From the NCBI RefSeq assembly GCF_035084215.1, contig NC_090356.1, positions 11,966,001 through 12,030,000 on the forward strand: a stretch of 64,000 nt of DNA, given 5' to 3'. This DNA is from Heptranchias perlo (taxonomy: Eukaryota). The notes beneath the pieces were generated by a model, which saw nothing but the letters and a program-made list of their open reading frames with translations, was not told the origin of the DNA and ran no database searches. The translations under genes were made by a program, and so were the position numbers. Positions 30,063 to 64,000 of the stretch are shown here, piece after piece. Each line of letters begins with the position of its first letter. Position 1 is the stretch's first letter.

Positions 30063-30150
30063 ATTTACCTGAGGAAGGAGGAAGTCTCCGAAAGCTTGTG
30101 AATTTAAAATAAAATTGCTGGACTATAACTTGGTGTTGTAAAATTGTTTG
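30063..30150 (+). mobile_element. Penelope-like terminal fragment, family A1, with hammerhead motif at 30063-30103
   Basis: ATTTAC CTGAGGA A GGAGG AAG TCTCC GAAA GCTT GTGAAT, followed by the AATAAA-containing family sequence. Confidence 0.8.
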
Positions 30151-32501
30151 CAAAGAGAGAAGAGTAGGAAGTCTGGGAGGAGCTAATGAATAGTAGAAAA
30201 ATGATCGAAAAAGAGAAAAGTAATACATTTAATGTTACTTTTTACTGCACTGAAGTATGCAGTATATAGGTTATATTTGCACAGTGGTGCAAGTGAGAGT
30301 CGTGTTTTCAATGCTTACATCATTCCGACGTTGGAGAAGGCAGAGCTCCGCACATGGACCAAGATGTGTGCTCGGTGCCCTGCTTACTGACCTCCCACTG
30401 CCTGTGTGACTTTCAACAATCAAAAAGAGGTGTCAAAATACTGGGCTGTTTTCAATCTTTCAAATATGATTGCTGGTACAGTGGGCCACTAGAGTTTCTC
30501 TTAACTATAAAAGGCTGTAAATTATTTTTGGCAAGGATTTGCACCAACTCGTTTTTAAACAGCAGCCAGCCCCTATCATTCCTAATGTAAGACTACTTCT
30601 TTCAGGTGATTTTTGATTGTTGTTGTGCTGAAAGTGCTCCTGCCCTGAGTTACCAGAAGACGTCACTCTAACAATGACTCAGAGCAGACTTGTCAGCGAT
30701 AATACGACAACAAACTATGATCGAAACATGAATCAGCAGCTCACTGCAATCTGTGTGATGGATGCAGCGTTCTGCTTATAACCATACTTACGTTTTTGAT
30801 GTCAGGGTTGCTGACTCACTATTGAAAAGCTCACACTGAGATTTTGTCCAATGTTGACCAATATAGCTATTACATATTTAGGAATTTGACAGAGATCAAT
30901 CTGCACTTAGAAAAATACAGGCTGCAAAACAAGGAATGATATGCATCTTTGGCAATCTGCTCACCTCATTTCAATGAATGATTTTGAATGTTTCTCAAAT
31001 GTGAGGGTGTGGGGAGAGTCAAAAGGGTCATATTTCCCAGTCCTTTGTGCCCAAGAAAATCCACTGCTTTCTTCCTGCTCTATCAACAAGCCTTTCACTG
31101 ATTCTTGGTTGCTCTCCACACTACTGCCCCGCTTCTCATTCCTTTCAAATAATCTTCCCTGCTTCTTGCTACTCAACAGTGCCAGGAGTGTGCAGGTCAC
31201 TCATGTATAAATGAAATAGCTTTGTAACCCTAATAGCCTTGTAGATTAGCAGAGCTGTCGATATTAATTCTAGTTGTGAGATTTCAGTCATGAACCACAT
31301 AACTAAAGTGTTGCCTCAGCCCAAAAATATAAAAAACAAATATAGGAAAAAGTATAGTTTACAGATAAAATGTAGGGTACATGTGAAGTCTGACTGGGGC
31401 TGAAATGTCACCTCTGTGGTTTCAAAGTCTGTACAAAGTTAAAAGGAAGGTTTAGGTTGGACATTAAAACCTGAAGAATTCACCGATTGGAAATGTCACA
31501 CCATGAACTCGGGAAAGTGCATTTTTATTTTTTTCATATTTGTTTGAACTTTCAATTCTACCACATTTCTTGGAGAATTTATTTTCTCCATTGTGATACT
31601 TTTGATATTAATTGGATTATTTTGTGCAGATGCCTTGATATTCTGCTTCCAACATTATCTCAAGTAGGAATTTCAAACTATCTAACAACTGTATGCAGTG
31701 CAAGATCTGCTTTTAATGTATTTTTGCACCCCCTTTTTAAAAAAAAAATCCACACCATAGTAAATTGTAATGCTTAGAACCAACACTGTGAGGGACTGGG
31801 GGCGAGAGAACTCTTAGACTTAATTACCTGTCCAGTAAAATTAAGTCATATCAGAGAATTGTATTGTTTTAATCCTTTAAAGCTTACTACTAAATACATT
31901 TTTGCCTTTGTCATGTAACATCCAGGAATCTGTGGGTAAAAGTCAATCCATCTCATTATAAAACAGCATATGTATTTTCTAAATTCCGCTTGTCACTGGG
32001 AGATGTGCCATGTGTCCATATTTGAAATTCACAGGATTCTAACAGAGTCAGAAAGTTCAATGAGACTGTAGACTCAGAGCTCTGGATAGGATTTTCCAAG
32101 CTGGGCGTTGATTATTTTGGTGACTGTTTAGGTCGTGATGTTATAATCAAGTTTGCGACAGTCACAATTATGTTCTGTGTGCTATAGATTAAAGAAGCAA
32201 TATTTCTTTTTAAATTTAAAAATGAAATAAGGTACACTTACTATTATCGAAATATTACCCCATTTGTGCCTGCAGTGATGTTATTGCTTGTTAAACACAA
32301 ACCTAATGCATTACCAAACACATCCAAAACAACAAAATTACCAAGAGACAAGCCTGACAAAAATAAGGCAGCATCCAATTTAATGCAACTTTTTGGACAC
32401 CATAAGACACCTTTTGGAGGAAAGTTTAATACTGCTTATCTATAGGACAAATCTCAGTGACAAATGTGCCGTGTTTATTTTGCTACATATCAAACTGATA
32501 A

Positions 32502-32595
32502 CCGAGTAAATGGAGTTAAGATACAGATCAGCCATGTTCTAATTGAAGGGCGGAACAGGATAGAGGGGCTGAATGGCCTACTCCTATTCCTATGG
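32502..32595 (+). mobile_element. CR1 3' tail fragment
   Basis: GATCAGCCATG...GGGCTGAATGGCCTACTCCTATTCCTATG, as at 60000-60071. Confidence 0.75.
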
Positions 32596-33589
32596 TATAA
32601 TTATACAACTATTAGGATTCACTAACATTAACCAGATGCAATCGTAGAGGAATTTTACAACTTTGAAGCAATGTGGGATTATTCTGAGCCAGTTACCATG
32701 ATTGTTGTTACCGATTTTGGGCTGTTAAAATACTGTTTCTATCTCAACCATTTCACAGCAGTTTCCATAAGCAGACCCTGTTCCCAATGTCCTGGAAGCC
32801 GGACCTTTATAATGAACGTCCCTTGCAGAATTGAATGACCCGCGGATTAATAATTGTTCCATGTTTTGGAATGAATCAAACGGTGTCTGCCATTTGTTAG
32901 ACTTGCCCTAGCATGTTTAGGTTTTTTAATTTTTTGCATGGCAAGTTGCTGAAAGTGTGAGCTGATAATGTCGTAGCGAGGGAAACAGGGCATCTGGGAC
33001 CTGAGTGAACAGGGCAAGCAACTGTGTATCTCCTTAACCAATCAAGACTGAAGGAATGCGAAATTAACAATACAAGGACTGAGAAGGAAGTGTAGGTGAA
33101 TTTAATGTCAAATCAGGTACAGAAAGAGAAATGAAGAGAGGGAAAGAAAGATTGAGTTGAGAGAGAAAGAGACAGAAAGGAAAAGTTTAAAAAAAAATTT
33201 AAATGGGACATTTTTGAAATTTCCAACAATTAAAACCTGAAGGAATGAGACTCCACACTTAGAGTTAATTTTCAGTGCCAGAAATGTTGATTGGCAGTAA
33301 TTAACTGTTATGACATTGTTAAAAGGGTATAGACTGGAATGGACAAGACTTAACTTTCTGTGGCAAGTTTAATTCATATGTATTGCGCAAATACAGCAAC
33401 TTCTGCCAATCAGTGCATTTCGATGGTGAGCCAGGCAGTGAGATGCTGTTTTCGCGAAGCTAACGGTGGAACTTTTGAATTTTTAAGTTTAACCGCGCAT
33501 CTGCCCCTCGCCTGAAGTTGCTGTACCATTGTGTGAGCGCCATTAGTCTTACTGTTATTTTGGCAGGAAAATCTGGGCTGTGATGTAAA

Positions 33590-33730
33590 TTGAAACAAAA
33601 ATAGAAAATGCTGGAGACACACAACAGGTCAGTCAGTATCTGTAGAAGACAGATAAGATAACATTTCACATGTAGACCCTTCATCAGAACTTGGTTCTCA
33701 TCTGTTCTCTTCACAGATGCTGGCTGACCT
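33590..33730 (-). mobile_element. Family B Penelope-like terminus with degenerate hammerhead core
   Basis: Minus strand reads AGTT CTGATGA AGGGTCTACATGT GAAA TGTT; flanked by inverted ATCTGT/ACAGAT arms. Confidence 0.6.
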
Positions 33731-34324
33731 TTGATCCTGTTTAAAGAAATTTGTTTGAATGATAGTGAGTGATTGTGGGGGATTTTTTAGTAACAGCTGA
33801 TAAACTTGTTAGTTGTGGCACCGTTTTCAAACAAACTGGTATTACAGACATAATGATTCACACCCAATGACAACCAGACCACAAAGAGTTCTGGAGGATG
33901 AAGTTAAGCATAATGTGGCCATTTAGATAACTATTGCCATTGATATAACCAAAGCACTTCACAAAAGGCCTCTTGAAAACAGAGGCCATATTACTTTGTA
34001 TAACCAAAAGCATAAAACTTCAGATGCTGGAAATCTGAAGCAAAAGCACAAATTGATGGACACCCTCCTTGGGGTCAGTTTGCATCTTTGGAGAGGGTGG
34101 CCCTGGAGAAGAAGCGGTGTCTTCCAGTACGCTTGAAGCCTCCTGCAATTGGTGGGCACTGCAGGGATCAGAGTGCGTAGTGGATAGTGGAAATAACATT
34201 ATTATTTAAATTATAAGTTTCCTTTGCTTTTGTTTTCTGTTTTCTATTAATTGCGTCCCTTTACAAGAGGGCACCTTTATTAAGTTTTAGTGTTAGGTTA
34301 GAGTTCAATAGTTAATTGAAGAAA

Positions 34325-34460
34325 AGGCATCTGTGGAGAGAACAGAAGAGAACCAAGTTTTGATGAAGGGTCGACACCTGAAACATTAACTCTGTTCTCT
34401 TTACAGATGTTGAGTGTTTCCAGCACTTCCTGTTTCTGCAGGGTTTTTTTTTGCTTTTTG
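34325..34460 (+). mobile_element. Family B Penelope-like terminus with degenerate hammerhead core (34356-34391)
   Basis: AGTT TTGATGA AGGGTCGACACCT GAAA CATT AACT, between inverted arms 34328-34346 and 34391-34409. Confidence 0.6.
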
Positions 34461-34488
34461 TTTAATTCATTGTCCCTTTTCTTCCAGG

Positions 34489-34809
34489 TGTGGAGATGCT
34501 GGCGATGGACTGGGGTTGACAAATGTAAGGAATCTTACACCAGGTGAGAGTCCAACAGTTTTATTTGAAAATCACAAGCTTTCGGAGGCTTTCTCCTTCG
34601 TCAGGTGAAGTGTGACGAAGGAGAAAGCCTCCGAAAGCTTGTGATTTTCAAATAAAACTGTTGGACTATAACCTGATGTGGAGATGCCGGTGATGGACTG
34701 GGGTTGACAATTGTAAACAATTTTACAACACCAAGTTAATTTTATTTTAAAATCCACAAGCTTTCGGAGGCTTCCTCCTTCCTCAGGAAGGAGGAAGCCT
34801 CCGAAAGCT
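34489..34809. mobile_element. Cluster of two adjacent family A palindromic insertions (A2 at 34489-34675, A1 at 34677-34809)
   Basis: Each starts TGTGGAGATGC(C/T)GG(T/C)GATGGACTGGGGTTGAC, runs to the hammerhead core and folds back as an inverted copy. Confidence 0.88.
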
Positions 34810-35103
34810 ACCCTTACCCCCTCCTGCCTGTTTTAGAGCAGTGATCAAGAGAAACTTCTTTACAGAGGGAGTTGTGAGACTGTGGAATTCACTTCCAAAG
34901 TTCTGTAGTGACAAGTTCTCCTCATGTTTTTATCCAAAACAGGCCTCAGCCCAGTCATTTACTCCAAATGTTGATGCAATGGTTCAAGCTAAGAGGTGCC
35001 AGGTATCAGGAGCAGCAGTAGCTGTAAATAAAATCTAAATGTAATTAAGTACCAATAGAGTTCATCTTCATCTATTTCCAGTTTAATAACTTTTGCTGAA
35101 TTC

Positions 35104-35353
35104 TGTAAAATTGTTTACAATTATTCTGAGACCTGGCAGGTAACACCTGATTGCCTTGGCAATGGGCAGTTGAAAAAACTGTCTGTTATCACCAAGCATT
35201 GTTCTGTGAATTATAAATGCGACTTCATTTTGAGGATTTCATTTCCACATCGTTCACCTGAGGAAGGAGGTAGCCTCCGAAAGCTTGTGAATTTAAAATA
35301 AAATTGCTGGACTATAACTTGGTGTTGTAAAATTGTTTACAATTGTCAATCCC
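35104..35353 (+). mobile_element. Longest family A1 copy (near-complete pseudo-LTR) abutting the KIF1B promoter
   Basis: TATAAA 35212, hammerhead 35253-35291, AATAAA, 3' hairpin; the 19-nt TGTAAAATTGTTTACAATT occurs at 35104 and 35326. Confidence 0.78.
35253..35291 (+). ncRNA. Minimal type-I hammerhead ribozyme motif
   Basis: Stem I TTCAC/GTGAA; core CTGAGGA; stem II GGAGG-TAG-CCTCC; GAAA; palindromic AGCT in place of helix III; predicted cleavage after CUU. Activity untested. Confidence 0.75.
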
Positions 35354-35439
35354 TCAATAGTGACCGCTTTACCTTTCGCCTCTCTTTTTTCCCCTTCCCC
35401 AAAAAAGAGCAAAAAGCGGTACTCTGCCATACAGCCTCC

Positions 35440-36000
35440 TCAAGCAAGGTGGCAGCCCAGCACACTTCGGCTGACAGAAATCCCGCATCGTTACGTCATT
35501 GCCAAGCAGAAGTCCCGCCTTCGGAATGCTCCTATTGGCTGCGCCGGTGCGCTGAGCGTGCCCATCGCCACAGCTCGCATTCCAATAGGCAAACTGCCCA
35601 GTCAATCACAAGAAGGCTGACGTAATGCCTCGGAAAAGCGGCCGGCGTTGGTAGTTTGGTCTCCGCTTTTAGAGATTTTTTTTGGGTTGCAACAGCGATA
35701 TCCCCCCCGCCCCCCTAACTCCCCCCGATCCGCAGTTTGAGCGCACTTGGCCGAGAAAGGAACCTCGAAAATAGCCCCGAATAAAAGATACGAGAGAGTG
35801 CGGCGTTAGGAGCGGGCTGGCGGGTGCCCATCATGGGTTTGGAGTGTTGACACATTCGCCTCAATTGTATCCGACCGCAGCGAGCTGTAACATTGTTACT
35901 TTCCGGCTTCCCTTCGCCCGGCTCCGGAGCAGCTTCGTCTCTCTCTCTCCCTCTCTCTGTGTTTTTGGTCTTTTCACAAGGGTAAGTAGTAACTGTGTCT
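35440..36000. promoter_or_regulatory. CpG-rich promoter of KIF1B with paired CRE-like and CCAAT (NF-Y) motifs
   Basis: Dense CpG in an otherwise CpG-depleted window; TTACGTCA 35491, ATTGG 35534, CCAAT 35582, TGACGTAA 35618; about 1 kb upstream of the KIF1B ATG exon. Confidence 0.8.
35700..35981 (+). other. KIF1B: Putative non-coding exon 1 (5' UTR) of KIF1B; start approximate
   Basis: Strong donor CAAGG|gtaagt at 35981/35982 inside the CpG-rich region; acceptor ttaatag| at 36772 precedes the ATG exon. Confidence 0.65.
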
Positions 36001-36835
36001 CTGGGGTCTGCCTTTATGCCGGGGGGTTGGCTCTGACTCCTCTCTCTCTCTCCTCCCCCCACCCCCACCTACATCCCGACCGTTTGTTTCCCACCTTGTC
36101 TCAGCACACGTCGTGTGCTCCCAGAAGCAGCTGTTTCCCCAATGAGGTTAGTTATTCTCCAGTAATGGAAAATAAGATTAGATGAATCGTTATCACCTCG
36201 CTTCGTTCTGAAGTAAAACTCCTGTTTTATTTTGGGTATAGCGATCATCTAAATTTAATGTTATGGTCTTAGTTAGGGCGAATGTTATTCAGGGTTGTGT
36301 TTTTTTTTGGGTGGGTTTTTTTGTGCGCACTCGCAACCTGTCAGGGACATAACTGATTTGTTTTGTGTCTCATTGCAGATCAAGGGCGGATGCCCTTAGT
36401 TTTTTTTTAATGAAAAGCTGACTCCAAGAAAACCCAATTTCATTGATAAATTGGTATTACGTGATTGTAATGCAGCATTTATTATGATTTAAAAAAAAAC
36501 ATTTCTACTTGATCTGAGGATGGAATGTTGAATGTTGTAATAGTTATTTGCGAAATCTGTACCTGTGCGTGAAGTATAGGAAGAAAATATCTTTGTGATG
36601 GTATAATTTTATTTTTCTGAAAATTGGAATGTTTCGAACATGCATCAGTCTCACTGCAGTACCGATACGGCAGCCATGTTTAAAATTTAACAACTGGAAA
36701 AGTGATCAAAACACCGTGACATCAGTGGCGACGTTTTTTTTTTATCTTGCCTGTGTGCGTTTTCGTTAATAGAACTCCTCTTGTAATCTTTGATATAGGG
36801 GCTGGTCGCTGTGAGAGAGAGGCACAAAGAGCAAG

Positions 36836-36941
36836 ATGTCTGGAGCATCTGTCAAAGTGGCGGTCCGTGTGAGACCGTTCAACTCTAGAGAGACCGGCAA
36901 GGATTCGAAATGCATCATCCAGATGCAGGGCAGCTCTACCA
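36836..36941 (+). CDS. KIF1B: KIF1B first coding exon (kinesin-3 motor N-terminus)
   Basis: ATG at 36836; [35 protein letters not shown]; donor ACCA|gtaagt; nearly identical to the human KIF1B N-terminus and syntenic with UBE4B. Confidence 0.95.
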
Positions 36942-39900
36942 GTAAGTGAAATCAGAATCCGACTCTCCATGAATCTCCTTGCCCATAACCTCGGCATCAC
37001 TGCGTCACCCATATTCATTGACTTTTCTGTGCCACACTGCAGAATTTCACTGCTACACATTTTACAAGACATCATGTTGATTTAATATCAGGAGGCTGAG
37101 TAACATAAACCACCTTTCTTCATGAATATTAAAATGTAAACCCCCTTGCAACATTTGAATGGTATATTTTTTGTTTATAAAACCTATCCTGTGGTGGCTG
37201 TAAAGTAGTCTTTGAAACATTTTACACATAACCTGTAGAAAAATGTAATGAAATCACACCAATCTAGCTGACGCTAGTAATTAATTTGCTTTTTTAATAC
37301 TTAAAATGCCATACATTTTGATTTCTGTCAGTTTTGTAACTGTGTTCAGATTGCGTGAGGGGTAAAAACAAATTTGGTAATTGGAATAGTTCTACCCACG
37401 AGTAGTCCAATTGTCACCAAAGATGGTGGTGATGAATATTTCTTGGGAACAATTTGAATAAGGAGAAGAATGTGTGTGTTGCACTTCGGCTAAAAATAAC
37501 TTTATTATCTTTGCAACTCATATTTCCAGTAATTGAAATTTGTGATCATACATTTGTGATTTAACTTGTAGCCAAAAAAAGTTTCAATTTTTGTGTTACA
37601 TTCTTTTGTTTACAAGTTGTGCACGTCCTCCTGCCTTATGGTGGTTAAGTTTTAAAAATGGTCAGCGTATCTTTTAAATGTATAATTTTCATATGATTAA
37701 AATTACACATACATATAGACACGCACGCACTTTGTAAAGGTGCTGGCCCAGATTCTTATTTGTGCAAAATAGCCACCAATACTGGGATTATATTTTGACA
37801 GAGCAAGTATGTATCTACAGATTGGCATATGCACAAATGTATACTTTAAAATGGATTGTAATGCAGTGCATACAGATCTTTAAGAGTAGTTTGGTCTTCT
37901 GAATGCTGTAATACTGCTTTGGAATTATTTTGGATTTTTGTGTGTTGTACATTGAGCAACTCTAACTCTATTGTGTTGATCTAGGATTCCATGCATGTTT
38001 CAGTTTTGTGCTGACTGGGCTGGCAGGTGGGGGAGGGATTTATTTTGCTACTTCCGTTCTGTGTAGATTATCCAAATGATAAAGATTCTTTAAGGATTAA
38101 GACAAACATCAAAATGATTCTATACCGAATGGGCAACATTTAAAATATGGTAAAACACGTTTGTCTTAATTATAAAAGGGAAATCATTGACACTTGTGCA
38201 GAATCCATAAAAAGCTGGCGTATTGGCGTGTAGCCCAGTCTCTACACATGGTCAGATTCGACTGCATATGGTGCAGAGTGGTGCTCATAATAAGCACATG
38301 ATGCATTGCTGAGATAGCTGAGGTATACCAGAGAGAATCTTGTACATTTTTAAAAAGATTTAAAATTATTTATTCCTCTGTACCCTATTTTTAAAATCTC
38401 ATTTCTCTTTTGGGCTCTCTATCACATACCCTGTAGCTAAGAGTTGTAAGTTCTGGTCATCTTCTGGTGACTAGACATACATTTACAATTGTGAGTGATT
38501 TTAAATTTACATTTTTGCTCACTTCTCATGATGTGGACTGATGTGTACCACCTTCATGTTCTGTTTTGACAAATCTGATAATTCATATTGGCATTAGCTG
38601 ATTGATTTGAATAGGTTTTGGGTTTCAAAATGTGTATCTTTGAACAAATGGTTGCTCACACTGTAATGGCAGTTAACAAGTGGGGCTTAAGAAAATCTCC
38701 AACTAAATAAACCACATAATGAACTGTAAGACCTACTGATGAAAATTGGTTATTAGTGTTGGCTACAAAACACTGTCCAACCATCACTGTGAATTTCCTT
38801 TCACAAATTGCTTGCACTGCTGCATTTTATCTAAAAATGTACGTCATGTGGATTTCTGATGCTGAATATTATAAAGAAAAAGCTAAAAGTATTTGAACCA
38901 TAGATCAATTGGTTAAATTATATTCTCTGAATAAATTGAAACCTTTTTATATACTAGTTGTGAAAATATACCATAGTCTTCAAGATTATAATGCATTTGA
39001 GGAAAAAAAAAGTCTTTGCTAATTAATAACACCGCGGAGCAGTACAGATCTTGCATTTCTCTTTGATATAAGTATCAGGTGGTTTTTGGCCTTCACTCTT
39101 ACACATTGGGATGTGCAGCAAGTGATCTGATGGCTACATCAGATAATGCTTTAAGTGTACTAATTCATCCATACAATGTTTTTCAGATTTTAATAGTTTA
39201 GTAGGTGAAGCATCACTTGGTGCAGCATTAAGCTGTACCGGGCAGAAAGTCCATGGTTTGATTCTTGGTCTCTGTTAGACTGGATGATATTGGGGTGCTA
39301 CAATTGGCATTGGTGCCCTTAAGCTGGAGGAGGACGGGGGGTGGGTGGGTGGTGGCAGGGGGGGATACGGGGTGTTGGGAGGGTGGGTGGTGCAGCTGGT
39401 GGTGAGGGAAAATCAGCCAGGGGTCCTGCTTGTGGATGTATGGTGAATAGAAGATGGGACTTGGCTGTGAGGCTCTCTTTGCTTGACGCTCATTAGATTC
39501 ACACATGAAGATTGGTCATTTGTGGAGAGGGGAGGGTAGTGGAATCTGTGATACTGCACTTGGCAGAATTGGCACGTTGAGGAGGGTAGGGGAAGGGTCT
39601 GGGTAGGTAAAATGAAATAGGCGCACAACATATGAACCTTTTTTTAACGTGAATGATGGTTTATTGAGATTATGTTCTCCTTTCCTGAGAATTGTATTTA
39701 TTGGCGACAAATTAATGTCACAATGGCTGTCATAGACTCAATTACAGGTTATTTGAGCCAACTGACATTTCAGGGTGGCGAACTCTGGTAGATTAAATGA
39801 GAATTTACTTTAATTGGGTTGCAAAACATACAATTTACTCTGGAAAATAAAGATGCTAAACTGTTGGTTTCACCCCTAGAAATACTTTTGCCGTGGAAGG

Positions 39901-40896
39901 TTAAAAATGATTAGTGTTAAGAGTAATAATAAAAGTGATTCATCTTTTCAGGGTTATATGTTGCATTTAAAATTGCTCTGGCATTTTCATGTAATATACT
40001 TAACATCCAACTTCGAATTATCTTACTGACTTTGTGCCATTCAGTCATTACACTGTACCCTTGTTATTCTCTAGGGTATTGCAAGTATGTGCGGTTTCAA
40101 AATTGTAATGCATAAATGGACTTCAGATGACATCTCGAATGCAAGGGTCAATCCTGAGCAGTTTGTCATATGAGCCCAGAAAGTATATTGTGTCCTTGAT
40201 TGTGCTCCCAGGCTAATTCAAAATTCAAGGTTGATGCTAGCTAATTATTACAGTCAAACAAGATGTTGGATTTTAGTATATACAGGTATATTACACCTCA
40301 GAAGCACATAATACTGTCAGTTGACCTCTGCTTCATTTCTATCATCATAATATTAGAAAACTGCCTCTTTTTCCTGTTATGTGATAAGCGGTTACACAAC
40401 AAAAACTTGGCCAATGTACTGGTTGAGATTAACATCAGTAACAGGAAATAAGAGCTCAAGTTTGCAGTAGGACACCTCTGAAAAGCTGTTCGTCGTTCAA
40501 AAAATATTTGTCCATGTTTTATAAAGTAGTTGAGCTCAAATGATTTCCTGATCACTTGAGCATCACTCTTGTGGTTTGACTTCATCTGACTCTCGAGTGT
40601 ATTCTGTTTTAAGATGCTTCTAGCCTTCATTATTCATTTGCATTGCTATATTGGTGACCTGCTAAACCAATGCAACAATCCCAAACGTGACAAGAAATCC
40701 ACCCATAATCTTTTAACACTTGGTTGCCATTGGACAATGGAATGTTTTATTTCCATTACAGTTTATATACGTAGAGCTTAGGGATCCTTCTGAGAACAGC
40801 AGCTGGTTTACAGAGCGTCCTCGATCAGTGTACTACTTCAGTGGCTGTGCATGAAAAAGATTATTCACGCATTCACTGGGGTGCAGACTTGTATAG

Positions 40897-40898
<2 letters not shown>

Positions 40899-40933
<35 letters not shown>
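40899..40933. repeat. (GT)n microsatellite
   Basis: About 17 GT units. Confidence 0.95.
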
Positions 40934-40934
<1 letters not shown>

Positions 40935-41335: not shown

Positions 41336-41482
41336 AGAATCACAGAAGCATAGAGCACAGAAGGAGGCCATTTGGCCCATTGTCCCAGTGCCGGCCCTTT
41401 GAAAGAGCTATCCAATTAGCCTCACTCCCTTGCTCTTTCACCTGAGCCCTGCAAATTTCTCCTTTTCAAGTACATATCCAAT
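41336..41482 (-). mobile_element. CR1 3' tail fragment
   Basis: AGCACAGAAGGAGGCCATTTGGCCCAT...AAGAGCTATCCA, homologous to the tail at 9767. Confidence 0.78.
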
Positions 41483-42647
41483 ATACTTGAAACATAAGAA
41501 GATTGGACTTGCATTTAGCAGGCATCTATCACATTTACTCGCAGCTGCAAAATGTTCTTTTTGGAGAAAAAAAAGTTATTGCCTTGCAGCATAAAATTTA
41601 CATGCAATTATAATTGCTCTCTGACTTGATACATTTTTCTTTTTGATTACTTTCTGGTTGAGCGGTGATATTAAAGGGACAGTCCAGATTAACAACTAAC
41701 CATTAAAAACCATGCTCCAGACACAGATTACACATGGTCAACGCCATGCAAAAATCAGCTAGTTAAGTCAAAATGTTAGTATTGCCAATTAAAACCATTA
41801 CAAAATAAAGGAACCATATAGCTGTTTGAATACATGTAAGTTAAAAAATTGACAGTACGGTCAAATTATTTAAAATATATTTTTTGAAGTGGCAATGCAC
41901 TTTAAATTTTACTTTGTCATTGGTGCCCAAAAGTTCTATTTGACTCTTGTGATGAGACACCAAAAATTTGAATAAGCTGCTAAATTTTGTTTTGAGAGAT
42001 CTGACTCTTGTTTAAAATATAAACTTAACCATTCCCTCATATTGTACTTCAGGAAGTGAGAACTGTGAAAATTTGTAAAAATATCATATGACTTCATTCT
42101 AAAATGAATGCATTATGATTTAACTGGGTGCACTTCTGCAAGTTTAAACTTTCAGCAGAAAAAATATCAGAGTATCTGTGGTTGCTGTCATAATTATATT
42201 TTGTGTATGGGTAAGCTGCATTTTAGAGATATTAGCTAAGTATACATTAAGGCAACATCCTAAGCTTGGATGGCCTTGAATATGAGCACATGAATACACT
42301 CTAACTGTTGAAGGACTCTGGCAGCATATCATTCAATAAAATAAAGTTGGGTATTTAAAGGTGTGTAATTATTGCCTAAATTAGACTGCAGTAATCTTGA
42401 CTATCGTGTCTTGCTCCTCTCATCCCTGCTTTTGTCATTTTATGGTTGGAATTCGCCACTGAACAGTGGTGATGCTGGCTACCTGATTGCTCTTTATTTG
42501 TCTATCCTTTAGGTTTGACTTGGATCATGAAGGAAAACTGGGCCTCATTAATATCAGCAACATTAAGGACATTAAATGTTCTATGCAGTTACAAAGGAAA
42601 ATATGTACCTTAAGGAGGCTGATATCTCCCCTGCATTTGTTGAAATG

Positions 42648-42731
42648 TTAACAATTTTACAACACCAAGTTATAGTCCAGCAATTTTATTTTAAATTCAC
42701 AAGCTTTCGGAGGCTACCTCCTTCCTCAGGT
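42648..42731 (-). mobile_element. Family A1 terminal fragment
   Basis: Reverse complement of the family A1 core; TTGAAATG direct repeat at 42640 and 42734 (possible TSD). Confidence 0.82.
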
Positions 42732-43231
42732 TATTGAAATGGTATCTTCACCTGAGAGCCCAACAGAATCTGGGGGTGTTTTGGTTGCCTGAAGTTGAGT
42801 TGCTTTTGTGCTGATAATTAAATAGCAGTTTTGGTTGCAGCTGGTTAAAACAACTTTCATTATGTTGAAATAACTTGGCACATCGCATGCTTTCAGCCTG
42901 CCTGCATTGCAGAGTTACAGTTATCCCTGGCTCTGTTTATAATTGATCTGTCATCGCAGCACAGTGTTTCTGCAGCAGGTAAAGGAAGGATTATTGATCT
43001 GTGGGCTAAGCTTGGATAATGCATTAAAGCTGCGGAAATGAAGTCCAGTGCCAAAAGGAAGCTGAGGCGAGAGAATATTCCAGAAAATGGACTGCATTTT
43101 TGACAGGAATTACTATACTTGGAACACATTTATAAATTTAAAATCGGGCAAATCGCTTATATTGAACAGATTTAATTAGGGCTTCAATAGATTGGTAGAA
43201 CTTGAGGTTCAAACCTGCAACTTTCCTACAT

Positions 43232-43583: not shown

Positions 43584-43627
43584 CAATGACTTCACACCAG
43601 TCATATGCGAGAAGGCACTAAGCAGAG

Positions 43628-50200: not shown

Positions 50201-51643
50201 ACAGATCACTTCTAACTGCAAAAACTGGCCGCTTGCATTTTTAGATTCCAGATCTGACCCTACGCTTTACAGTCATGTTTAAAATCTGACTACCTTGTGT
50301 GTCTCTTTGACCCTTTTCTGTTGATTCTGACCCCAGCAAGCAGAGCGGCGGTGCTTCTGACATCTTCCTGCGCAGGCATTTGTCAGCAGGCCTGTCGACC
50401 AAACATACCACCACCCTCTTAAGTTTATATTCTCTGCAGACTCCTCAGGCCGTGTCCATATGAATAGAAGCATCTTCAGCTCAATGGGTGAGAATATTAA
50501 TTGGCCGTCTAAGACAAGATGATGAATTGCTTAACGTTCCTGGCTAATGGGCCTGGGATGAGTGAATAGATCCTCGTGTCAGTTTGAAATGGACAAGGAG
50601 TTGTGACATTCCCTAAACTGCCTTGTCTGGGTTTTAATATACATTCTTCAGTCTGTGTCTTAAACCTGTGCAAATTTACTTTGTTTTAAAACGTAACCCT
50701 TAAATATAATTCAATCCTAAAATTCTTTCCACGAAGAAAAAAAATGTTCAAAAATACAGAAATCTGACCGTGGGGAAGATACAGTTCAATACAAAGCAAA
50801 TTCTACTTGTATTGTGCGCCATAAACTAGTGATGAGTACAATTTTCCTGTTAATATTCACTTGAACACTCAGTCAGTGGTACAAGAAGTATAGGTTTGGC
50901 CCTTCCAAACATGTGTCAGGAGAGAGAACTTTGAGCTACTTTAACACTGGAGTGAAGCACTGGTGGTTACAGGTTTATCAGTGGTGGTACAACTATCACA
51001 ACAAGATTTTGTAATTATATAGCACCTTTTAATATAGAAAAAACATCCCAAGATGCTTGTAGCAATATGAGGTCACACAGCATTAATGCATCTTGCATTG
51101 TATCTGTTTTCCCCCATAACATATTGATGCTTCTACAATGTACTGATGCCAATATACTAAATGAGCCAAATGACAACATAACAATGTGATTAACAACCTC
51201 TGGCAGCTCAAGCTATTTGATAAAAGGTTTTACCATTAATGGATTTTATAAATTGAATTCTCTCTTACACCTGAACTGTACTGGAGAAATTATAACACAA
51301 AATCCTGGCAGCATTTGGGCTTTTGGTGTCAAATAGTTTAAATATGGGGTAATCAAAAATTGTGCCACTGGTTTACTTCCAGTTTTGTGTTTACTGCATT
51401 GGGATGAACAGCTATTAGCAACAGAAGGTAGGTAATTACTAAAGCATGTAATTAGCTGAGTTTCTGTTTATAATTTCCGAATTACTTTGAATGTTGCATG
51501 TATACAGACTATGTGTAATTTAATGTCACTTAATTCAAATTCTGATTATTCAAACTTATCACTAAATTATGACTGCATTGCTTAAATCAAATTCTTGGAT
51601 AATTCAAATAGTTTTAACAGAAAACGACCTCAGATTATCAGGA

Positions 51644-51858
51644 TGTGGAGATGCCGGTGATGGACTGGTGTTGACAAATGTAAGGAATCTTACAACACCA
51701 GGTTATAGTCCAACAGTTTTATTTGAAAATCACAAGCTTTCGGAGGCTTTCTCCTTCGTCAGGTGAAGTGACGAAGGAGAAAGCCTCCGAAAGCTTGTGA
51801 TTTTCAAATAAAACTGTTGGACTATAACCTGGTGTTGTAAGATTCCTTACATTTGTCA
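51644..51858. mobile_element. Family A2 palindromic insertion with 14-bp TSD
   Basis: Perfect 90-bp arms 51672-51761 and 51769-51858, 7-nt spacer; TCAGATTATCAGGA at 51630 and 51856; hammerhead on the minus strand at 51729-51767. Confidence 0.92.
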
Positions 51859-51883
51859 GATTATCAGGAGTAGGCTGTATTAT

Positions 51884-52725: not shown

Positions 52726-53268
52726 CATAAGAACGTAAGAACATAAGAAATAGGAGCAGGAGTAGGCCCCTTGAGCCTGCTCTGCCATTCAATAAGATCA
52801 TGGCTGATCTTCAACCTCAGCTCCACTTTCCTGCCCGATCCCCAGATCCCTTGATTCGCCTAGAGTCCAAAAATCTATCTATCTCAGCCTTGAATATATT
52901 CAATGACTCAGCATCCACAGTCCTCTGGGGTAGAGAATTCCAAAGATTCAGAGCCCTCCAAGTGAAGAAATTCCTCCTCATCTCAGTCTTAAATGGCCGA
53001 CCCCTTATCCTGAGACTCTGACCCCTAGTTCTAGACTCTTCAGCCAGGGGAAACAACCTCTCAGCGTCTACCCTGTCAAGTCACCTCAGAATCTTATATG
53101 TTTCAATGAGATCACCTTTCATTCCTCTAAATCAGAGAATATAGGCCCATTCTACTCAATCTCTCATCATAGGACAACCCTCTCATCCCAGGAATCAATC
53201 CAGTGAAACTTTGTTGCACTGCCTCTAAGGCAAGTATATCCTTCCTTAGATAAGGAAACCAAAACCGT
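52726..53268 (-). mobile_element. CR1 3' fragment
   Basis: ORF 52817..53056(-): FPLAEESRTRGQSLRIRGRPFKTEMRRNFFT...LWNSLP; CATAAGAA-type tail. Confidence 0.9.
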
Positions 53269-56200: not shown

Positions 56201-58779
56201 CAGACAGAGAGAGACTTTTATCTTCTATAATCTTTGCTCAATTTGATCTTCTTTCCCAAAGTTGAAAGAACTGTGGGTTGCATTATACTGTGCACACTAT
56301 CTGGATTTTCTGTAATCTTCAACGGGATGACCTTAAAGATGTGAAATGTTATTTTCAGGGGCCTTAAAATTGCTCATATACCTTTTGTAGATAGCATTTG
56401 AGAGTGAGTTTTGCTTTATGCTAGGCTGAAAAGTGCAGTGCACATTTGTTTGATTGTAACTTATGGATTAAACTGATTTTGATGAGGAAAGATTACAATC
56501 GTTCTTGCATAGTTTGACTTTGTAACGGAAGCATGTAGTGGCCTCCATTCTATTTACTGTTAATGTAATTTGCTGAAGGTTGACTAGCTTGTGATTGGTA
56601 GAAGGGCTATTGCATTTATATTGCATTGTATTTGTTCAGTTTATTTAGATCACAAAATTATGACCTGGAACACTTGACGACAGTGAGCTGTTTGCACCAT
56701 GAGCAATGCAGCTGATAACACTGCAGTGTTAGTTAGTTTTGTTTGTTTGAGTTGATACATAATTACATTTGCATTTATAATTACTTTAGGTCCTTTTTCT
56801 CAGACTTTATAAAAACCGGCGTGCATTTGATTGATGCACATCGAAAAGTTTAGTTACATCCTGTTAATAACTTTGTCATTACGTTTAACCTTTTACATCT
56901 GCTAAAGCTCTCTGGTACTGTGAGGGGGAAAAAGTCATTTCATACTCTAAATTTACACTGGACTGCTGAAATGGCATGTTTAATTGGGTACGCCGGGTAA
57001 TTAGTTACTGTAGAAATCAGTAAGGTCGTCGTGCACACCAACCAGGGGCTTGCTTTCTCTGGAAATGTTTGGACCATATGCTGAGTGTATCATTCCCCAG
57101 CTGGTGAGTGATATTTATAGGCCGTCTATCTGTACCGACAGCTGAACCGAGTCCTTGAGAGTGCATGTTAAGTCTGAAAGTTTGTCAGGGATCTCTGGGA
57201 TTTACAGACACACCTGTCTCAATTTCTCCTTTTACCCGATTGCCCTGTTTTTTTTTCCGAGAAATTCAAAGGAGACAAGCAGCAGTCCTTGTGAATTCCA
57301 TGTGCCATATGCTATGCATTTCATGTCTTGGAAACCCAGCTGCGTATACATTCAAAATTCCAAAGGGAATTATCTCTTGATGTCTTCTGTATGTGTTGGG
57401 ATTAACTGTGAAGATCAAAAGTTAACAGATTTCCAATAGAATATTGGATTGACATTTTTAGCATACTTTTCAAGCAGGACTGAAAGCCTGGTTTCTTATT
57501 TTCATTACTTTGCAGTGAGAGATCTATGTAGGTGCATGGAATTTCCAACAATAAGTTAATCTCAAAAAAGGGAAAAATGAAGGGAGGGGAGTTTGGGAAT
57601 GTTAGATATTGTGGCACAGCTGGTTATGTTGTGATTCTTTCTTTCCCTCCCTCGGAGTTTCACATGCTGGATATTTTCTCAACGTTAAAAAAAAAAATTT
57701 GGGTCCGCTGAAGGTGCTTACTCTGGTTCAGTGGCGTACATCACTCCCATAAGTGCACCCCATGCTCCTTGCATGGTGGAGTAGAGAGACAGTGCCCATT
57801 ATCTATCAATCTGATAGCATAATCCAGGGGAATAACAGTAGTCCCTCCTTGTGTCATTCATATGTGCCCCCAATTGCCCCTCTAATCTTTTTGAAGGTAG
57901 ATGGAGAAAACACCGAGTAAGGTGAGGCCAGATACGAATTGTTAAACTGCCTTATTTCACGAGTGAACACAGAGAACAAGCTATGATTGGACTGATTTGA
58001 ATTAAATCAGTACAACTTGTCTTTGCATAAAAATACAAAAATAATGAACATGCAACAGTTGCCTTGCTTGACTTAAACAAAATAACGTTAACTAACCTTC
58101 ACCATTTTCCATTTGAGCCTGGCGAAAGTTTGCCTTTTCAGCTGTCTTTTCAAAGACCTATCTGTCCTTGCAGGCTTTGCTGGACCTGGCTGTCGGTGAG
58201 TGAGTGTTCCTTTTTAGCTGTTGAGAAACAGAAGGGAAGGCCTGCCAGACTCCTCCTGCTGACCGCCTGGGACTAGAGACTTGTCAACACAATGGGTTTT
58301 AGATGTTTATCGATTACCAAGCCAAGCTAACAAATAGGTCGTGGGTTGAGGGCGGGGAGGAGATCAACATTTTAAAAAAAAAAGATTATTTTTCAAATCC
58401 TTTCTGTGGGAAAAATTGGTTTAACCCCCCCCATCCACCAAAACATGCCCCCTCAGAAGGAGATGGCATTCCTGGGATACTGTTGTGTAGTACTTGGTAG
58501 TGACTTTTGGACACTGTGGGAGATGAACCCGATGTAACTTGTTTAACAAAACAAGGACATTTTTGAAGCGTAAACTTCAAAGTACTGGATGCTTGGGTCA
58601 TTAACTCCTCCATTATGTTTAGAGGATATGAACCTGAATGAATTTGTAAGTTATTTTACAAATTCAATCAGTTCCGAGCACTACTTGGCCTTAAAGTTTG
58701 AAGTTTTTTTTTGATTAAAACCCTCTGGTTGTGCATTCTTGCTTCACGAGAGATTCCATGTTTGTGGGATATTTGATAT

Positions 58780-60071
58780 TTTTATTAGAGTCTGTAATTA
58801 AGGATAGAGTGACTGAACACCTTGAAAATTTTCAGCTGATCAGAGAGAGCCAGCATGGATTTCTAAAGGGTAGGTCATGCCTGATGAACCTGATTGAATT
58901 TTTTGAAGAGGTGCCTAAAGTAGTGAACCGGGGAATGTCTATGGATGTTGTTTATATGGACTTCCAGAAGGCGTTTGATAAAGTCCCTCATAAGAGACTG
59001 TTAGCTAAAGTTGAAGCTCATAGAATTGAGGGCAAATTATTGGCCTGGTTAGGAAATTGGCTGAGCGACAGGAGACAGAGAGTAGGGATAATGGGCAGGT
59101 ACTCAAATTGGCAGGATATGTCTAGTGGTGTCCCACGGGGATCTGTGTTGGGGCCTCAACTGTTCACTATATTTATTAATAACTTAGATATGTAGCTCTC
59201 TATCCAGTCATCTGAGTTTGCCCATGACACAAATATAGGCAGCATTGTAAGCAGTGTAGATGAAAGCATAAAATTACAGAGATATATTAATAGATTAAGT
59301 GAATGGGCAAAACTGTGGCAAATGGATTTCATTGTAGGCAAGTGTGGGTACTTTCTAAATGGTGAAAAAGCTTGAAACAATGGAAGTCCAAAGAGACTTA
59401 GGGGTTCATGGACTGGTACAGAAAATAATCGAAAAGGCTAATGGATTGCTGGCCTTTATACCTAGAGGACTAGAATACAAGAGGATAGAAGTTATGCGAC
59501 AGCCATACGAAGCCCTGGTTAGATCACACCTAGAGTATTGTGTTCAGTTCTGGGCACCGCACCTTAAGAAGGATATATTGACCTTGGAGGGAGTGCAGTG
59601 CAGGTTTACTAGAATGATACCTGGACTCCAAGGGTTAAATTACGAGGAGTGATTACACAAACTAGGGTTGTATTCCCTGGAATTTAGAAAATTAAGGGGT
59701 GATTTGATCAAAGTTTTCAAGATATCAAGGGGAACGGAGGGTAGATAGGGAGAAACTATTTCTGCTGGTTGGGGAATCTAGAACTAGGGGACATAGCCTA
59801 AAAATTAGAGGCGGGACTTTCAGGAGTGAAGTTAGGAAACCCTTCTACAGTCAAAGAGTGATAGAAGTTCGGAACTCTCTTCCGTAAACGACAGTTGATG
59901 CTAACTCATTTGTTAAATTTAAACCTAAAATTGATAGATTTTTGATAACCAAAGGTATTAAGGGATATGAGGCTACAGCGGATAAATGGAATTAGATCAC
60001 AGATCGGCCATGATCTCGTTGAATGGGGGAACAGGCTCGAGGGACTAAATGGCCTACTCATGTTCCTATGT
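58780..60071 (+). mobile_element. CR1 LINE, 5'-truncated, disrupted RT
   Basis: QHGFLKGRSCL, YMDFQKAFDKVPH, GVPRGSVLGP, LVRSHLEYCVQFWAPH; CR1 tail. Confidence 0.94.
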
Positions 60072-60529
60072 TATTGTATCTACATATTAGGTGCCAAAGA
60101 AATTTCTGTAACTTACTCTAATTCAGGTTGAAAAGTACAGGATGACTCACTGTTCCCAACTTCCAAAATGTTCAGTAAGCATCAGTAATTTTGTGCAGAT
60201 TATCGGATAATCATATTATAATTTGTGCACGTGTTTGCCAGAATAGAGGTGCAGATCCATATCAAAGTAGTGAGGAGAGATCCTTTTGGCCTATGTTTGA
60301 ATCTGGGTAATAGGTAAAGGGATTGACCAAATGAATCTACTACCTGATAACCATTTAATAAACACTGCATCTTTAATTACTATCCCAGTAGTTTTTATGC
60401 AATGATTGTGGGGCAGAATTATGTGTTGTACATACTTATCTTGTGTATGTTGAACGTGGAATTCATTCTAAACCACAGAATGTGGGGCTTCACGCTCTTT
60501 GGGTTGCAAGGTATGGTAGACAACCTTGT

Positions 60530-60753
60530 ACAATTGTAAACAATTTTACAACACCAAGTTATAGTCCAGCAATTTTATTTTAAATTCACAAGCTTTCGGA
60601 GACTTCCTCCTTCCTCAGGTAAACATTTACCTGAGGAAGGAGGAAGTCTCCGAAAGCTTGTGAATTTAAAATAAAATTGCTGGACTATAACTTGGTGTTG
60701 TAAAATTGTTTACAATTGTCAACCCCAGTCCATCACCGGCATCTCCACATCAT
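60530..60753. mobile_element. Family A1 palindromic insertion with 15-bp TSD
   Basis: Perfect 94-bp arms 60530-60623 and 60626-60719, 2-nt spacer; GACAACCTTGTACAA at 60519 and 60754; hammerhead motif on both strands (60584-60623 minus, 60625-60665 plus). Confidence 0.93.
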
Positions 60754-60866
60754 GACAACCTTGTACAAATGCCACATAAAATGGAACCGAGCAAAAGCCC
60801 TAAGGATTAATGTGCACACCATCAGTACATCCAGTTTGATTAAATGGTAATTGGTCACAACAGAGG

Positions 60867-61325
60867 TGTCAGCTGTGGCTCAATGAGCAGCACTCTCGCC
60901 ACTGAGTCTGAAGGTTGTGGGTTCAAGCCCCACTCCAGAGACTTGAGCACAAAGTCTATGCTGGCACTTCAGTACTGAGGGAGTGCTGCACTGTTGGAGA
61001 TGCCATCTTTCATACGAGGCATCAAACCGGGCCCCGTCTGCCCTCTCGGGTGGACATAAAAGATCCCATGGCACTATTTTGAAGAAGAGCAGGGGAATTC
61101 TCCCCGGTGTCCTCCCCATTAACTATCCCTCAATCAACATCACAAACAGATTATTTGGCCATTGTCTCATTGCTGTTTGTGGGACCTTGCTGGGTGCAAA
61201 TTGGCTGCTGCGTTTCCAACATGACAACAGTGACCACACTTCAAAAGTTATTCATTGGCTGTAAAACGCTTTGGGCTATCCTGAGGTTGTGAAAGGCACG
61301 ATATAAATGCAAGTCTTTCCTTTCT
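60867..61325 (+). mobile_element. Full-length tRNA-derived Deu-domain SINE (SacSINE1-like)
   Basis: A-box TGGCTCAATGAG, B-box GGTTCAAGCCC, core TTGCTGTTTGTGGGACCTTGCTGGGTGCAAATTGGCTGC, L2-like tail ATAAATGCAAGTCTTTC. Confidence 0.87.
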
Positions 61326-61572
61326 TATTACTGGAAATAATTGCCCCAAGAGCATTGCTAGAAGCTGTTCTGTACTGCATAATAATAAAAAAATACCATA
61401 CTACACTAATACTCCACTCAGATAGCATGCAATTTTGTTTTTAAGAATACCCTGGCAGTTATACAATGTGTGCATCATAAAATATAATACATTGTATATG
61501 ACTCTATTGCATTTGTGCTACTTGGGAAAGGAGGAGATCTTATGTATGCATGCCTTGCTTGACACATGCAGT

Positions 61573-61693
61573 TTGTGGTTCGAGGATTTCAGTTCCACAT
61601 TCACCTGAGGAAGGAGGAAGCCTCCGAAAGCTTGTGGATTTTAAAATAAAATTGTTGGACTATAACTTGGTGTTGTAAAATTGTTTACAATTG
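61573..61693 (+). mobile_element. Family A1 single-arm insertion with 14-bp TSD and hammerhead motif at 61600-61638
   Basis: TTGACACATGCAGT at 61559 and 61691; TTCAC CTGAGGA A GGAGG AAG CCTCC GAAA GCTT GTGGA. Confidence 0.88.
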
Positions 61694-64000
61694 ACACATG
61701 CAGTGAGCATTCTATTCAGTTTTCTATGTAGTAACTCTGACATGGTTTATTAATGGTTATTACTGTGTAGAAAATAATTTTCCTCATACCATTTAGCTTA
61801 AAGATGGCTTTGAAACGAGTGTGACTTAATGAAGTATGCTTCATTTAGCTGCTCAAGCAAATTTATGATGAGCACTTTTTTTTGTTGAGACGTTTTGCAA
61901 CCTTAAAACCTGAGTACAGAACCTTCACTTTTCCAAACCTATCCATTATTTGGTTAGCCTTTTACAGTTCTCTATTAGTTACCAGCTTGGTCTTTTATGG
62001 CACCATAAATTGTCATTTACTGCTTTGGTACCAAAGCAAATTTGGCTCCTGCTTCAGTTGCCCAATTCAGAAATTTTTCAGTCTAAACTTTAGGTTTCGC
62101 CTTCTAATCCTGGTACTAAAAGACAGTCACCTTATCTCATTGTAATAGATGCAGTGGGTTTAATGTGTATTGGAACACTTACAGTTTGCACTTGCTAAAG
62201 TTTTGATTAAAGTGGCAATTTGCAGTGAATGACTAATCATCAACACTCTGTAATGCAGTTCAGTATTTTACATTAATCACATTGCTTTACTTCACCTCAC
62301 CAAGTCTATAGTAAGATCCTTTTAACTAAGTCTTAAATAGCTGAGGTGATGAGGATGTAAGTGGTGGAAAATGCGCTTGTCCCAGGATGTTGCAGAAAAC
62401 AAGTTTGGTTATAGCTATAGATGTCATTTGTTTCCATCTCTGAGCTGGATTCTTAAAACAGGATCTTTTGGGGTAGTGCAGCTCATCGACTGTGCAGCAG
62501 CCATTTTATGATTTGGAAGTTTTTTGGGCATACCTCCAAGGGAAGGACATTGGTAAACAACGTAATAATTTTATTTTCATTTTTTTTGGTAACATTGAGT
62601 GCTCCAAGTGTGGTTTATTTAACGCCAACCTTCTGTGCTCCCCACTGAACCAGTGTGATATTTGTTTCCCATACAAACTATTCTTGTGCCATCTGAGTGA
62701 AACTGACCATTTAGTGCCGAATTGGGAACTGGTTAATGCTGTGGACTTGGACCCACTAGAAACTGATTGTGACTGCACATATTTGCTTCATTTTAGAGTT
62801 TTATATTAGCACGATGAGACTTTTTTTATAATTTATGTCCATAACAGTGTAAATGTGGTGCAAAACTTCTGGGATAGAGCTGCAGAATTACAAATTGCAG
62901 CAGATGAATCACTTCTGTTGAGACCTAGGTGGTGTGGCGATGGTATAACATTTTGTTGAGGTTCTTGTGCTGTAGCTCAAATACAACCCGCATTGCGATG
63001 TGTGGGGTTACCTTCATCTGACCACCAATTCCAGCTCTTCAGGCTGCTTCAGTAGGTCAAGATCGCGAGCCACGCAGTTGGGAGCTGTGGATTCCTCTGA
63101 ACTATTAGCTACAGTAAGCAAGCATGCACTTGCACCACTGGTTCACGTATCTCAGATGCATGTGCGATTGTGGCTGAAACTGGAGCACAAAGTTGTGCTG
63201 CCAACATTGAGCTGTCTACATATTACTCTGCACCCACCAGTGTACCATTTACCTGTGTTAGTGAAGGAGACATGCTAAATAGTGCGACCTGACTTGTGCC
63301 AGATACATTGGTATAACAAGGACTCCCTATCTAATTGGAAGTTCGGGAATTTGGAAGAAATCTGTTATGGAAGACACTGTGTGAGAGAACCCTCCTTAAG
63401 ATTAGTGCTGATTAGTTTGAGATTTGCTGGTCAGAAAAGTAAATGTAGTCCCATTATTTGTGTGACGTCCTCTGTTATTTTTTGTTTGGAAGAGCACTAT
63501 GAAATAGATTGAAATTTATTGTATGATTAAAAAAAAATCTGTTTGTTGATCTAGAGTAGAGTTGGCCTTATCTTAGGGTGTTTATCAGTCCTGCTGCTGG
63601 AAGGTAGGCGAAATACTGTACATGCATGATTGTACCATCCAGTTCAAAGAACGAGGTGTTTCATTCTTGACCCCACCATCGCACTTTTGTAGGACTGGAT
63701 ATTGGGCAGTAAAAGTAAACTTCTGATCATAAGGATCTGTTTATGGGAAAGACCGATGACACTGAACCACAAGCAAATATCGAGTGTGGACCCAACATTT
63801 GTAACGTGCACCTTAAGGAATATTGAAACTGGTCAGGGGATTCAAATGTGATTAATTTGATTCAGATGATGAGCAATATAATTGTTTGCTAAGTGCTGAA
63901 TTTAGGCCATTTTAAAAACAGCTGCAGGCCAAAAAGCTAAATTTTCAGAGGCTTTAAATTTCATTTTTTTTTTCTTCACTTGGTGTGATCTGAGTTTGCT

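Follow-up and report, generated by a model that had tools for sequence, protein, structure and literature searches.

A stretch of 64,000 nucleotides of the Heptranchias perlo genome (NCBI RefSeq assembly GCF_035084215.1, contig NC_090356.1, positions 11,966,001 to 12,030,000, forward strand) was analysed and is referred to below as the window. A short dispersed repeat with a minimal hammerhead ribozyme motif was found at 30.1–61.7 kb by BLASTN and nhmmer, with 12 arms in eight insertions (I1–I8) and two subfamilies. The insertions were very probably products of an endonuclease-bearing Penelope-like element (PLE) retrotransposon, consisting of the pseudo-long terminal repeat (pseudo-LTR) only and inserted via target-primed reverse transcription. 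This identity, combined with a mechanism of promoter-started RNA and run-off copying, was the best explanation overall, in which we have good confidence.

Copies, subfamilies and host genes

The copies were searched for using BLASTN (word size 7) and an nhmmer profile, both from the window's own copies. Positions within a copy are given on a scale in which minus values lie upstream of C3 of the hammerhead and plus values lie downstream of the predicted cut after CUU. Statements on published systems refer to the parts of the cited papers that were covered. The eight insertions were as follows.

30062–30153, plus strand: I1, simple copy, subfamily A; complete minimal hammerhead (C3 at 30069, predicted cut after 30097); 5′ end at about −7, 3′ end at about +56; no target-site duplication found
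34489–34679: I2, inverted copy, subfamily B; long arm 34489–34612, minus strand, with a tail and a complete hammerhead (C3 at 34604); short arm 34613–34679, plus strand, stopping where I3 starts
34674–34809: I3, inverted copy, subfamily A; long arm 34674–34787, minus strand, with a tail and a 9-nt deletion, most of the 5′ strand of stem I missing; short arm 34781–34809, plus strand, 29 nt, ending one base short of the predicted cut
35104–35353, plus strand: I4, longest copy, subfamily A; complete hammerhead (C3 at 35258, predicted cut after 35286); partial tandem in which 35104–35122 is a 19-nt direct copy of 35326–35344 (period 222)
42648–42730, minus strand: I5, simple copy, subfamily A; 5′ end at −1/−2, hence an incomplete stem I
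51644–51858: I6, subfamily B, inverted; the two arms pair at 90/90 positions around a 7-nt apex, and the left one bears the tail; complete minus-strand hammerhead (C3 at 51762)
60530–60753: I7, subfamily A, inverted; the two arms pair at 94/94 positions, and the right one bears the tail; complete hammerheads, one per strand (C3 at 60631, plus, and 60618, minus)
61573–61693, plus strand: I8, simple copy, subfamily A; 5′ end at −32; complete hammerhead (C3 at 61605)

The first-pass annotation of this DNA had reported seven loci. All of the starts that it listed were real, but eight insertions were present, since 34489 and 34677 belong to two adjoining elements of different subfamilies (I2 and I3). 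Apart from stem I, the layout of the unit was largely as described there; the inversion in half of the insertions had gone unmentioned. The abutting of I2 and I3 agrees with the reported habit of PLEs of inserting into or beside earlier copies (PMC6765202). Beyond the 12 arms and the 19-nt direct repeat at 35104, BLASTN and nhmmer found no copies above noise in the window and no fragments of the 3′ part only or of the tail only. All eight insertions were confined to 30–62 kb, with none in 1–30 kb, and genome-wide copy number should not be extrapolated from this clustering.

The differences between copies were counted over 85 aligned bases. The copies of subfamily A had 0–8 differences (0–5 excluding the poorly aligned I3), the two subfamily B copies had two differences and a 3-nt gap, and the two subfamilies were separated by 10–15 differences. 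Divergence inside the subfamilies was 1–5%, which, together with the target-site duplications described below, upholds the earlier claim of recent activity. Moreover, the CpG beside GAAA was kept in 12/12 arms, whereas it had decayed in an older family described in the last section. In relative terms, the sequences thus indicate a young family.

The host features of the window were as follows.

5836–9743, plus strand: Ufd2/UBE4-type exons (Pfam)
about 35450–35900, at ~35.5 kb: CpG island
36836–36943, plus strand: first coding exon of a kinesin-3 gene

I1–I4 lay upstream of the CpG island, and I5–I8 lay downstream of the kinesin-3 first coding exon; the latter four are probably intronic. No further kinesin exons were found by a short-motif search of the window. 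The host genes are presumably UBE4B and KIF1B, names that we take from vertebrate synteny.

The hammerhead motif and its likely activity

A complete minimal type-I hammerhead was present in 7 of the 12 arms and in 6 of the 8 insertions. The core CUGANGA with an extra base, G10.1–C11.1, GAAA, the palindromic 15.1–16.1, UH and the closing helix I were all present. A relaxed descriptor, composed after the motif had been seen, gave seven matches on the two strands of the window (30069+, 35258+, 60631+, 61605+, 60618−, 51762− and 34604−), and 60 shuffled versions gave 0.03 matches on average and at most one each. The full hammerhead consensus claimed by the first-pass annotation was confirmed for the core, the extra A, stem II, GAAA-GC-UU and the predicted cut after CUU, but the copies at 34786(−) in I3 and 42729(−) in I5 miss most of the 5′ strand of stem I and are incomplete ribozymes. 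Stem I had been given as TTCAC/GTGAA, which was exact only in the copy at 35104, the others having wobble-keeping variants or a 4-bp stem. The proposed check with hammerhead models succeeded with our own descriptor but not with Rfam, as the scan of the window returned no hammerhead family among nine matches at E ≤ 5. The top Rfam matches were microRNA-like hairpins because of the inverted repeats, and the hammerhead models of Rfam are built on motifs with helix III. Scanning for the motif gave no match in plasmids or in contigs of bacterial and archaeal genomes, where stray eukaryotic DNA might have occurred.

The motif was compared with the metazoan PLE minimal hammerheads of PMC4209133. Both are of type I, with an extra base before G10.1, a G10.1–C11.1 pair, a short helix I, no helix III loop, a palindromic 15.1–16.1 and an AU-rich 3′ flank, and both occur mostly as dispersed single motifs, with some opposite-strand pairs 100–700 bp apart. 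Of the entries there, that of the turtle shares the GC/UU arrangement, and that of the lamprey resembles the window motif in helix I. In contrast, the part of the supplement that was searched holds no chondrichthyan entry, and the sections covered do not analyse tails, duplications or 5′-end clustering. Single minimal hammerheads from truncated PLEs were reported there in thousands per genome in coelacanth and Xenopus. As a catalogue entry, the present family carries little weight, since PLE ends bearing such motifs are known throughout the animals.

Core and flank conservation, which the first-pass annotation had suggested comparing, favoured the motif by column counts but not by the covariation given below. 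No core column was variable (0/13), in comparison with 20/76 other columns, 2 of which reflected misalignment (p about 0.03), and this invariance may give weak support for selection in the source elements. The region from the ribozyme to the tail folded as a stem-loop in both subfamilies, with one compensatory pair that was not above the shuffle control.

Helices I and II were the predicted fold of four isolated motifs. In context, the hammerhead helices had pair probabilities of more than 0.8 in I4 and I8, both in sense to the host gene, and were weak in I1 and absent in I5. In the inverted copies, the motif was predicted to be buried within the perfect hairpin. Monomers of the minimal motif did not cleave and multimers cleaved only weakly in PMC4209133, and 1/9 Xenopus dimers cleaved and 8/9 did not in bioRxiv 10.64898/2026.07.22.740005. 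On this analysis, the ribozyme of the source element was probably weak and dependent on a dimer or on protein, and the ribozyme of most window copies is probably inert. Active or co-opted ribozymes that cut or regulate the transcripts of the host kinesin-3 are weighed here as very improbable. The well-paired helices of I4 and I8 in the host-gene sense and the position of I4 just upstream of the gene's CpG island would agree with such a role. However, the motif is buried in the inverted copies, I3 and I5 lack a complete stem I, the related monomers and most of the Xenopus dimers did not cleave, and the copies are young, with conservation unlikely.

Copy ends, origin and mode of insertion

Half of the insertions (I2, I3, I6 and I7) were head-to-head inverted repeats. 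A 3′ tail of 33–37 nt on one arm was found in 4/4 inverted copies and in 0/4 simple copies (Fisher p = 0.029), and apart from these four tails the tail sequence occurred nowhere else in the window. The tails and the target-site duplications were located as follows.

34489–34521, minus strand: tail of I2
34674–34709, minus strand: tail of I3
51642–51676, minus strand: tail of I6
60717–60753, plus strand: tail of I7
42637–42647 and 42731–42741: target-site duplication of I5, 11 bp with one mismatch
51630–51643 and 51856–51869: target-site duplication of I6, 14 bp, perfect
60519–60533 and 60754–60768: target-site duplication of I7, 15 bp, perfect
61559–61572 and 61691–61704: target-site duplication of I8, 14 bp, perfect

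The chance of a 14-mer duplication in comparable windows was 1.5e-4. A 12-nt repeat near I1 was rejected as a duplication, lying 43 nt away from the junction. The 3′ ends fell into two zones. The first, at about +53 to +67, held the four simple copies and two short arms, and the second, at +90 to +94, held the four long arms. The two scorable short arms with intact flanks stopped at +56/+60 and +59/+62, that is, in the zone of the simple copies. Of the remaining short arms, that of I2 reached +35, its junction with I3, and that of I3 ended at −1 from the cut.

Similar structures are known from the Penelope elements of Adineta vaga and Drosophila virilis (PMC3846280, PMC2377424), which have head-to-head inverted pseudo-LTRs of about 200 bp, a 31–34 bp tail on one arm, target duplications and a promoter in the pseudo-LTR. 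PMC3846280 and PMC8557442 describe inverted pseudo-LTRs with a one-sided tail of 30–40 bp, duplications of 8–10 bp and a TATA box with an initiator in a pseudo-LTR. In A. vaga and D. virilis, the units flank open reading frames (ORFs), whereas the window insertions are repeats only, and the duplications are 8–10 bp versus 11–15 bp in the window family. The inverted arms, the one-sided tails, the target-site duplications and the fit to the consensus of PMC4209133 lend good support to the PLE origin that had been proposed. The ribozyme, the inversion, the tail and the duplications are all known PLE traits, and the family most likely belongs to a known class. A miniature inverted-repeat transposable element whose arms hold a hammerhead-like string by chance would also produce long hairpins (135–225 bp in 4/8 copies) with duplicated target sites. 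This origin is hardly credible, as the arms are unequal, the ends vary, 4/8 copies have no inversion, the duplications vary from 11 to 15 bp and the motif agrees with the PLE consensus in every listed feature.

The 5′ ends of I1–I8 lay at −7, −8 to −10, −1, about −154, −2, −8, −8 and −32, respectively. Six of the eight were 1–10 nt upstream of the ribozyme core; those of subfamily B were defined by the apex, and no longer B copy was present within the window. A 14-nt interval upstream of C3, equal to 62 of 854 scorable bases, contained 6/8 ends (binomial p = 3.6e-6, a value that ignores both the post hoc choice of the interval and the kinship of the copies). None of the eight ends lay at the cut site, and hence the templates were not the 3′ product of the ribozyme. 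A candidate core promoter lay upstream of the hammerhead of the longest copy.

35212–35244, plus strand: candidate core promoter in I4, with a TATA box at 35212 and an initiator-like hexamer with its A at 35241

The distance from the TATA box to the initiator was 29 nt, and the initiator A was at −17 from C3. In I8, the A of an initiator-like hexamer was at 61591 (−14). Only three pairs of TATA box and initiator were found on both strands of the whole window, using consensus patterns. Since I4 begins with 19 nt copied from its 3′ end, the TATA region was assigned to the element itself. A transcription start 14–17 nt upstream of the core is predicted from the TATA box and the initiator, and PLE promoters are reported to sit in the pseudo-LTR (PMC6765202, PMC8557442, PMC2377424). 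The candidate pair in I4 also faces the host CpG-island promoter region (about 35450–35900), which follows within a few hundred bases, and might supply the host gene with a further start site upstream.

The most likely mechanism comprises a promoter-started RNA, internal priming and run-off near the ribozyme, and taken alone it is an even call. The promoter in the pseudo-LTR would start the RNA about 14–17 nt upstream of the hammerhead, and the reverse transcriptase (RT) would prime internally at two zones downstream of the ribozyme (about +56 to +63 and +90 to +94). The complementary DNA (cDNA) would then run off the 5′ end of the RNA after 90–135 nt. A single priming event would give a simple copy. 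If both nicked target strands were primed, one per zone, the two run-off cDNAs would be joined head-to-head, giving an inverted copy with the tail on one arm. Uncut RNA would serve as the template, with the ribozyme as a passenger that does not set the 5′ end of the copy, and I4 and I8 would come from a downstream pseudo-LTR or from read-through RNA. On this view, most copies may have arisen by run-off reverse transcription primed close to the 5′ end of an uncut transcript, and not as extreme truncations of the 3′ end. The first-pass annotation had offered extreme 5′ truncation or non-autonomy; both stay live rivals, but it omitted run-off cDNA, which fits the end positions best.

Parallels to this mechanism were found in PAc, a Poseidon-clade PLE of Anolis carolinensis (PMC11167929). 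The PAc protein nicks and extends both target strands and assists the cleavage of its ribozyme, and reverse transcription begins internally on uncut RNA at two tail-defining sites. As in the window family, the ribozyme is followed by an AC-rich end zone about 90 nt on, two end zones lie about 35 nt apart and the inserted copies span the cut site. By our arithmetic from the same paper, the main start of PAc lies 85–92 nt past the ribozyme cut. PAc differs in that its ORF starts inside the ribozyme, whereas the three frames of the window family all stop before +45.

Several results weigh against the PLE identity and the run-off mechanism. The sample was eight insertions of related copies. No clean duplication was found at I1–I4 (4/8 insertions). 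Microhomology with the target was present at 4/4 scorable 3′ junctions (4, 3, 3 and 2 nt), whereas PAc priming in vitro needs no target homology (PMC11167929). The TATA box was found in I4 only, and the promoter motifs were sought after the end cluster had been noted. In D. virilis Penelope, the internal promoter is TATA-less and is separated from the downstream ribozyme by 46 nt and an intron (PMC2377424, PMC4209133), so the TATA/initiator geometry is not general. Helix covariation was limited to one compensatory pair, with a score reached by 128/500 shuffles. The palindrome-paired dimer had a nearest-neighbour energy of −24.7 kcal/mol versus 2 × −12.8 kcal/mol for two monomers, that is, no dimer gain. 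Furthermore, no GIY-YIG match was found among 140 window reading frames of at least 76 aa (Pfam). An open frame of 80 codons at 35059–35298, which spans the upstream part of I4 and the ribozyme, had no homologue among longer or similar-length proteins and gave two weak matches in a profile-free search of 1.84 billion proteins. One of these two was examined; it covered 20 residues in a repeat protein and was taken as chance.

The same Pfam scan yielded three RVT_1 fragments and three Ufd2P_core exons, and no linked ORF with a PLE-type RT and a GIY-YIG endonuclease was present in the window.

3425–3817, 26942–27241 and 58719–59192: RT fragments (RVT_1) of the long interspersed nuclear element (LINE) type

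The RT fragment nearest to the insertions, at 1.3 kb from I7, resembles LINE/R2 RTs and looks CR1-like by motif, and was for this reason dismissed as the parent. No tRNA genes were found.

Extreme 5′ truncation of copies primed in the 3′ pseudo-LTR was weighed as a possible but doubtful alternative to run-off. The RT would stall on leaving the folded or protein-bound ribozyme, and fold-back of the cDNA would make the inverted arm. In PLEs, strong truncation at the 5′ end is the classic pattern (PMC8557442), and a truncation route must exist, as I4 and I8 run past the predicted start. The apexes of the inverted copies had 1–2 nt of microhomology and short loops, which suit fold-back, and both arms of each inverted copy came from one subfamily (4/4). 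A hairpin was also predicted in I4 just upstream of the stop zone. However, no stops were detected within the more stable downstream stem-loop or the ribozyme itself, and fold-back alone gives no account of short arms that end where the simple copies begin or of the placement of the TATA box and initiator. Antisense self-priming, as proposed for rotifer elements (PMC3846280), may be a further route.

Amplification of a non-autonomous mini-element is unlikely but was also considered. One or a few short or palindromic masters, retrozyme-like or hairpin, would be re-amplified by PLE proteins, and the ends of the copies would be inherited. The apexes of I2 and I6 were nearly identical (loops of 9 and 7 nt), I1 and I7 had a common 5′ end and differed at 1/85 positions, and two copies of the older family have a common apex and deletion. 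At 222 nt, the partial tandem of I4 is within the sizes reported for retrozymes (PMC7229834). Animal non-LTR retrozymes (PMC7229834; bioRxiv 10.64898/2026.07.22.740005) are likewise short non-coding hammerhead units related to PLE pseudo-LTRs, from which the latter study derives them, and they were found in one chondrichthyan. Retrozymes differ in forming head-to-tail tandem units, whereas the window copies are dispersed, simple or inverted, with a minimal rather than canonical motif. Against such masters, the four inverted copies had four different apexes in two subfamilies, the 3′ ends varied, the candidate promoter was missing from the short copies and the window held no tandem array and no tandem dimer with full hammerheads.

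A more speculative view, which we regard as improbable, takes the mini-copies as the genomic fossil of a strong-stop-like PLE step with the hammerhead mainly as a dimerisation signal. A protein dimer would grip two uncut transcripts by their 5′ ends, paired via the ribozyme palindrome. Each nicked strand would prime one RNA at one of the two internal sites, with run-off just past the ribozyme and head-to-head joining. The minimal hammerhead near the cap would serve RNA dimerisation, and cleavage would be occasional. If so, the 29-nt short arm of I3 (34781–34809) could have been copied from a 5′ leader after cleavage. This arm could also reflect a later deletion, which is possible because no duplication flanks the I2 and I3 pair.

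The role of the PLE ribozyme and the origin of the inverted ends and tails are called open in PMC8557442 and PMC11167929. The value of the window family is mechanistic, as a young family with clean duplications would allow a direct genomic test of 5′ ends against the start and the cut site. No report of a shark PLE ribozyme family, or of 5′ ends clustering at the ribozyme or the start site, was found in the literature searched, with subscription papers outside the search for both and Dfam and Repbase also outside it for the former; the family may well be already catalogued.

Hairpins and the older repeat family

Two perfect hairpins, of 90 bp (51672–51858) and 94 bp (60530–60719), follow the first exon of the kinesin-3 gene. 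Should they be intronic, long double-stranded RNA would result, a possible substrate for editing or for small-RNA production. The family also points to a plentiful, closely spaced supply of 90-bp perfect hairpins in genes of the host.

The window also contained another repeat family, older than that of I1–I8, whose minimal hammerhead had a different sequence and had decayed.

20283–20473, 33589–33730 and 34327–34443: copies of the older family
34032–34094: weak fragment of the older family

The identity between these copies was 68–78%, and their CpGs had decayed. Within ~1 kb immediately before the CpG island (34327–35353), a copy of the older family was stacked with I2, I3 and I4. Several other dispersed repeat families in the window were unrelated to I1–I8. 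The types of short interspersed nuclear element and LINE in the flanks look like those of cartilaginous fishes. The three copies of the older family were all inverted and turned at the 5′ side of the ribozyme. The copies at 33589–33730 and 34327–34443 had a common apex loop and a common deletion in one arm, which suggests that this pair was amplified as a unit.

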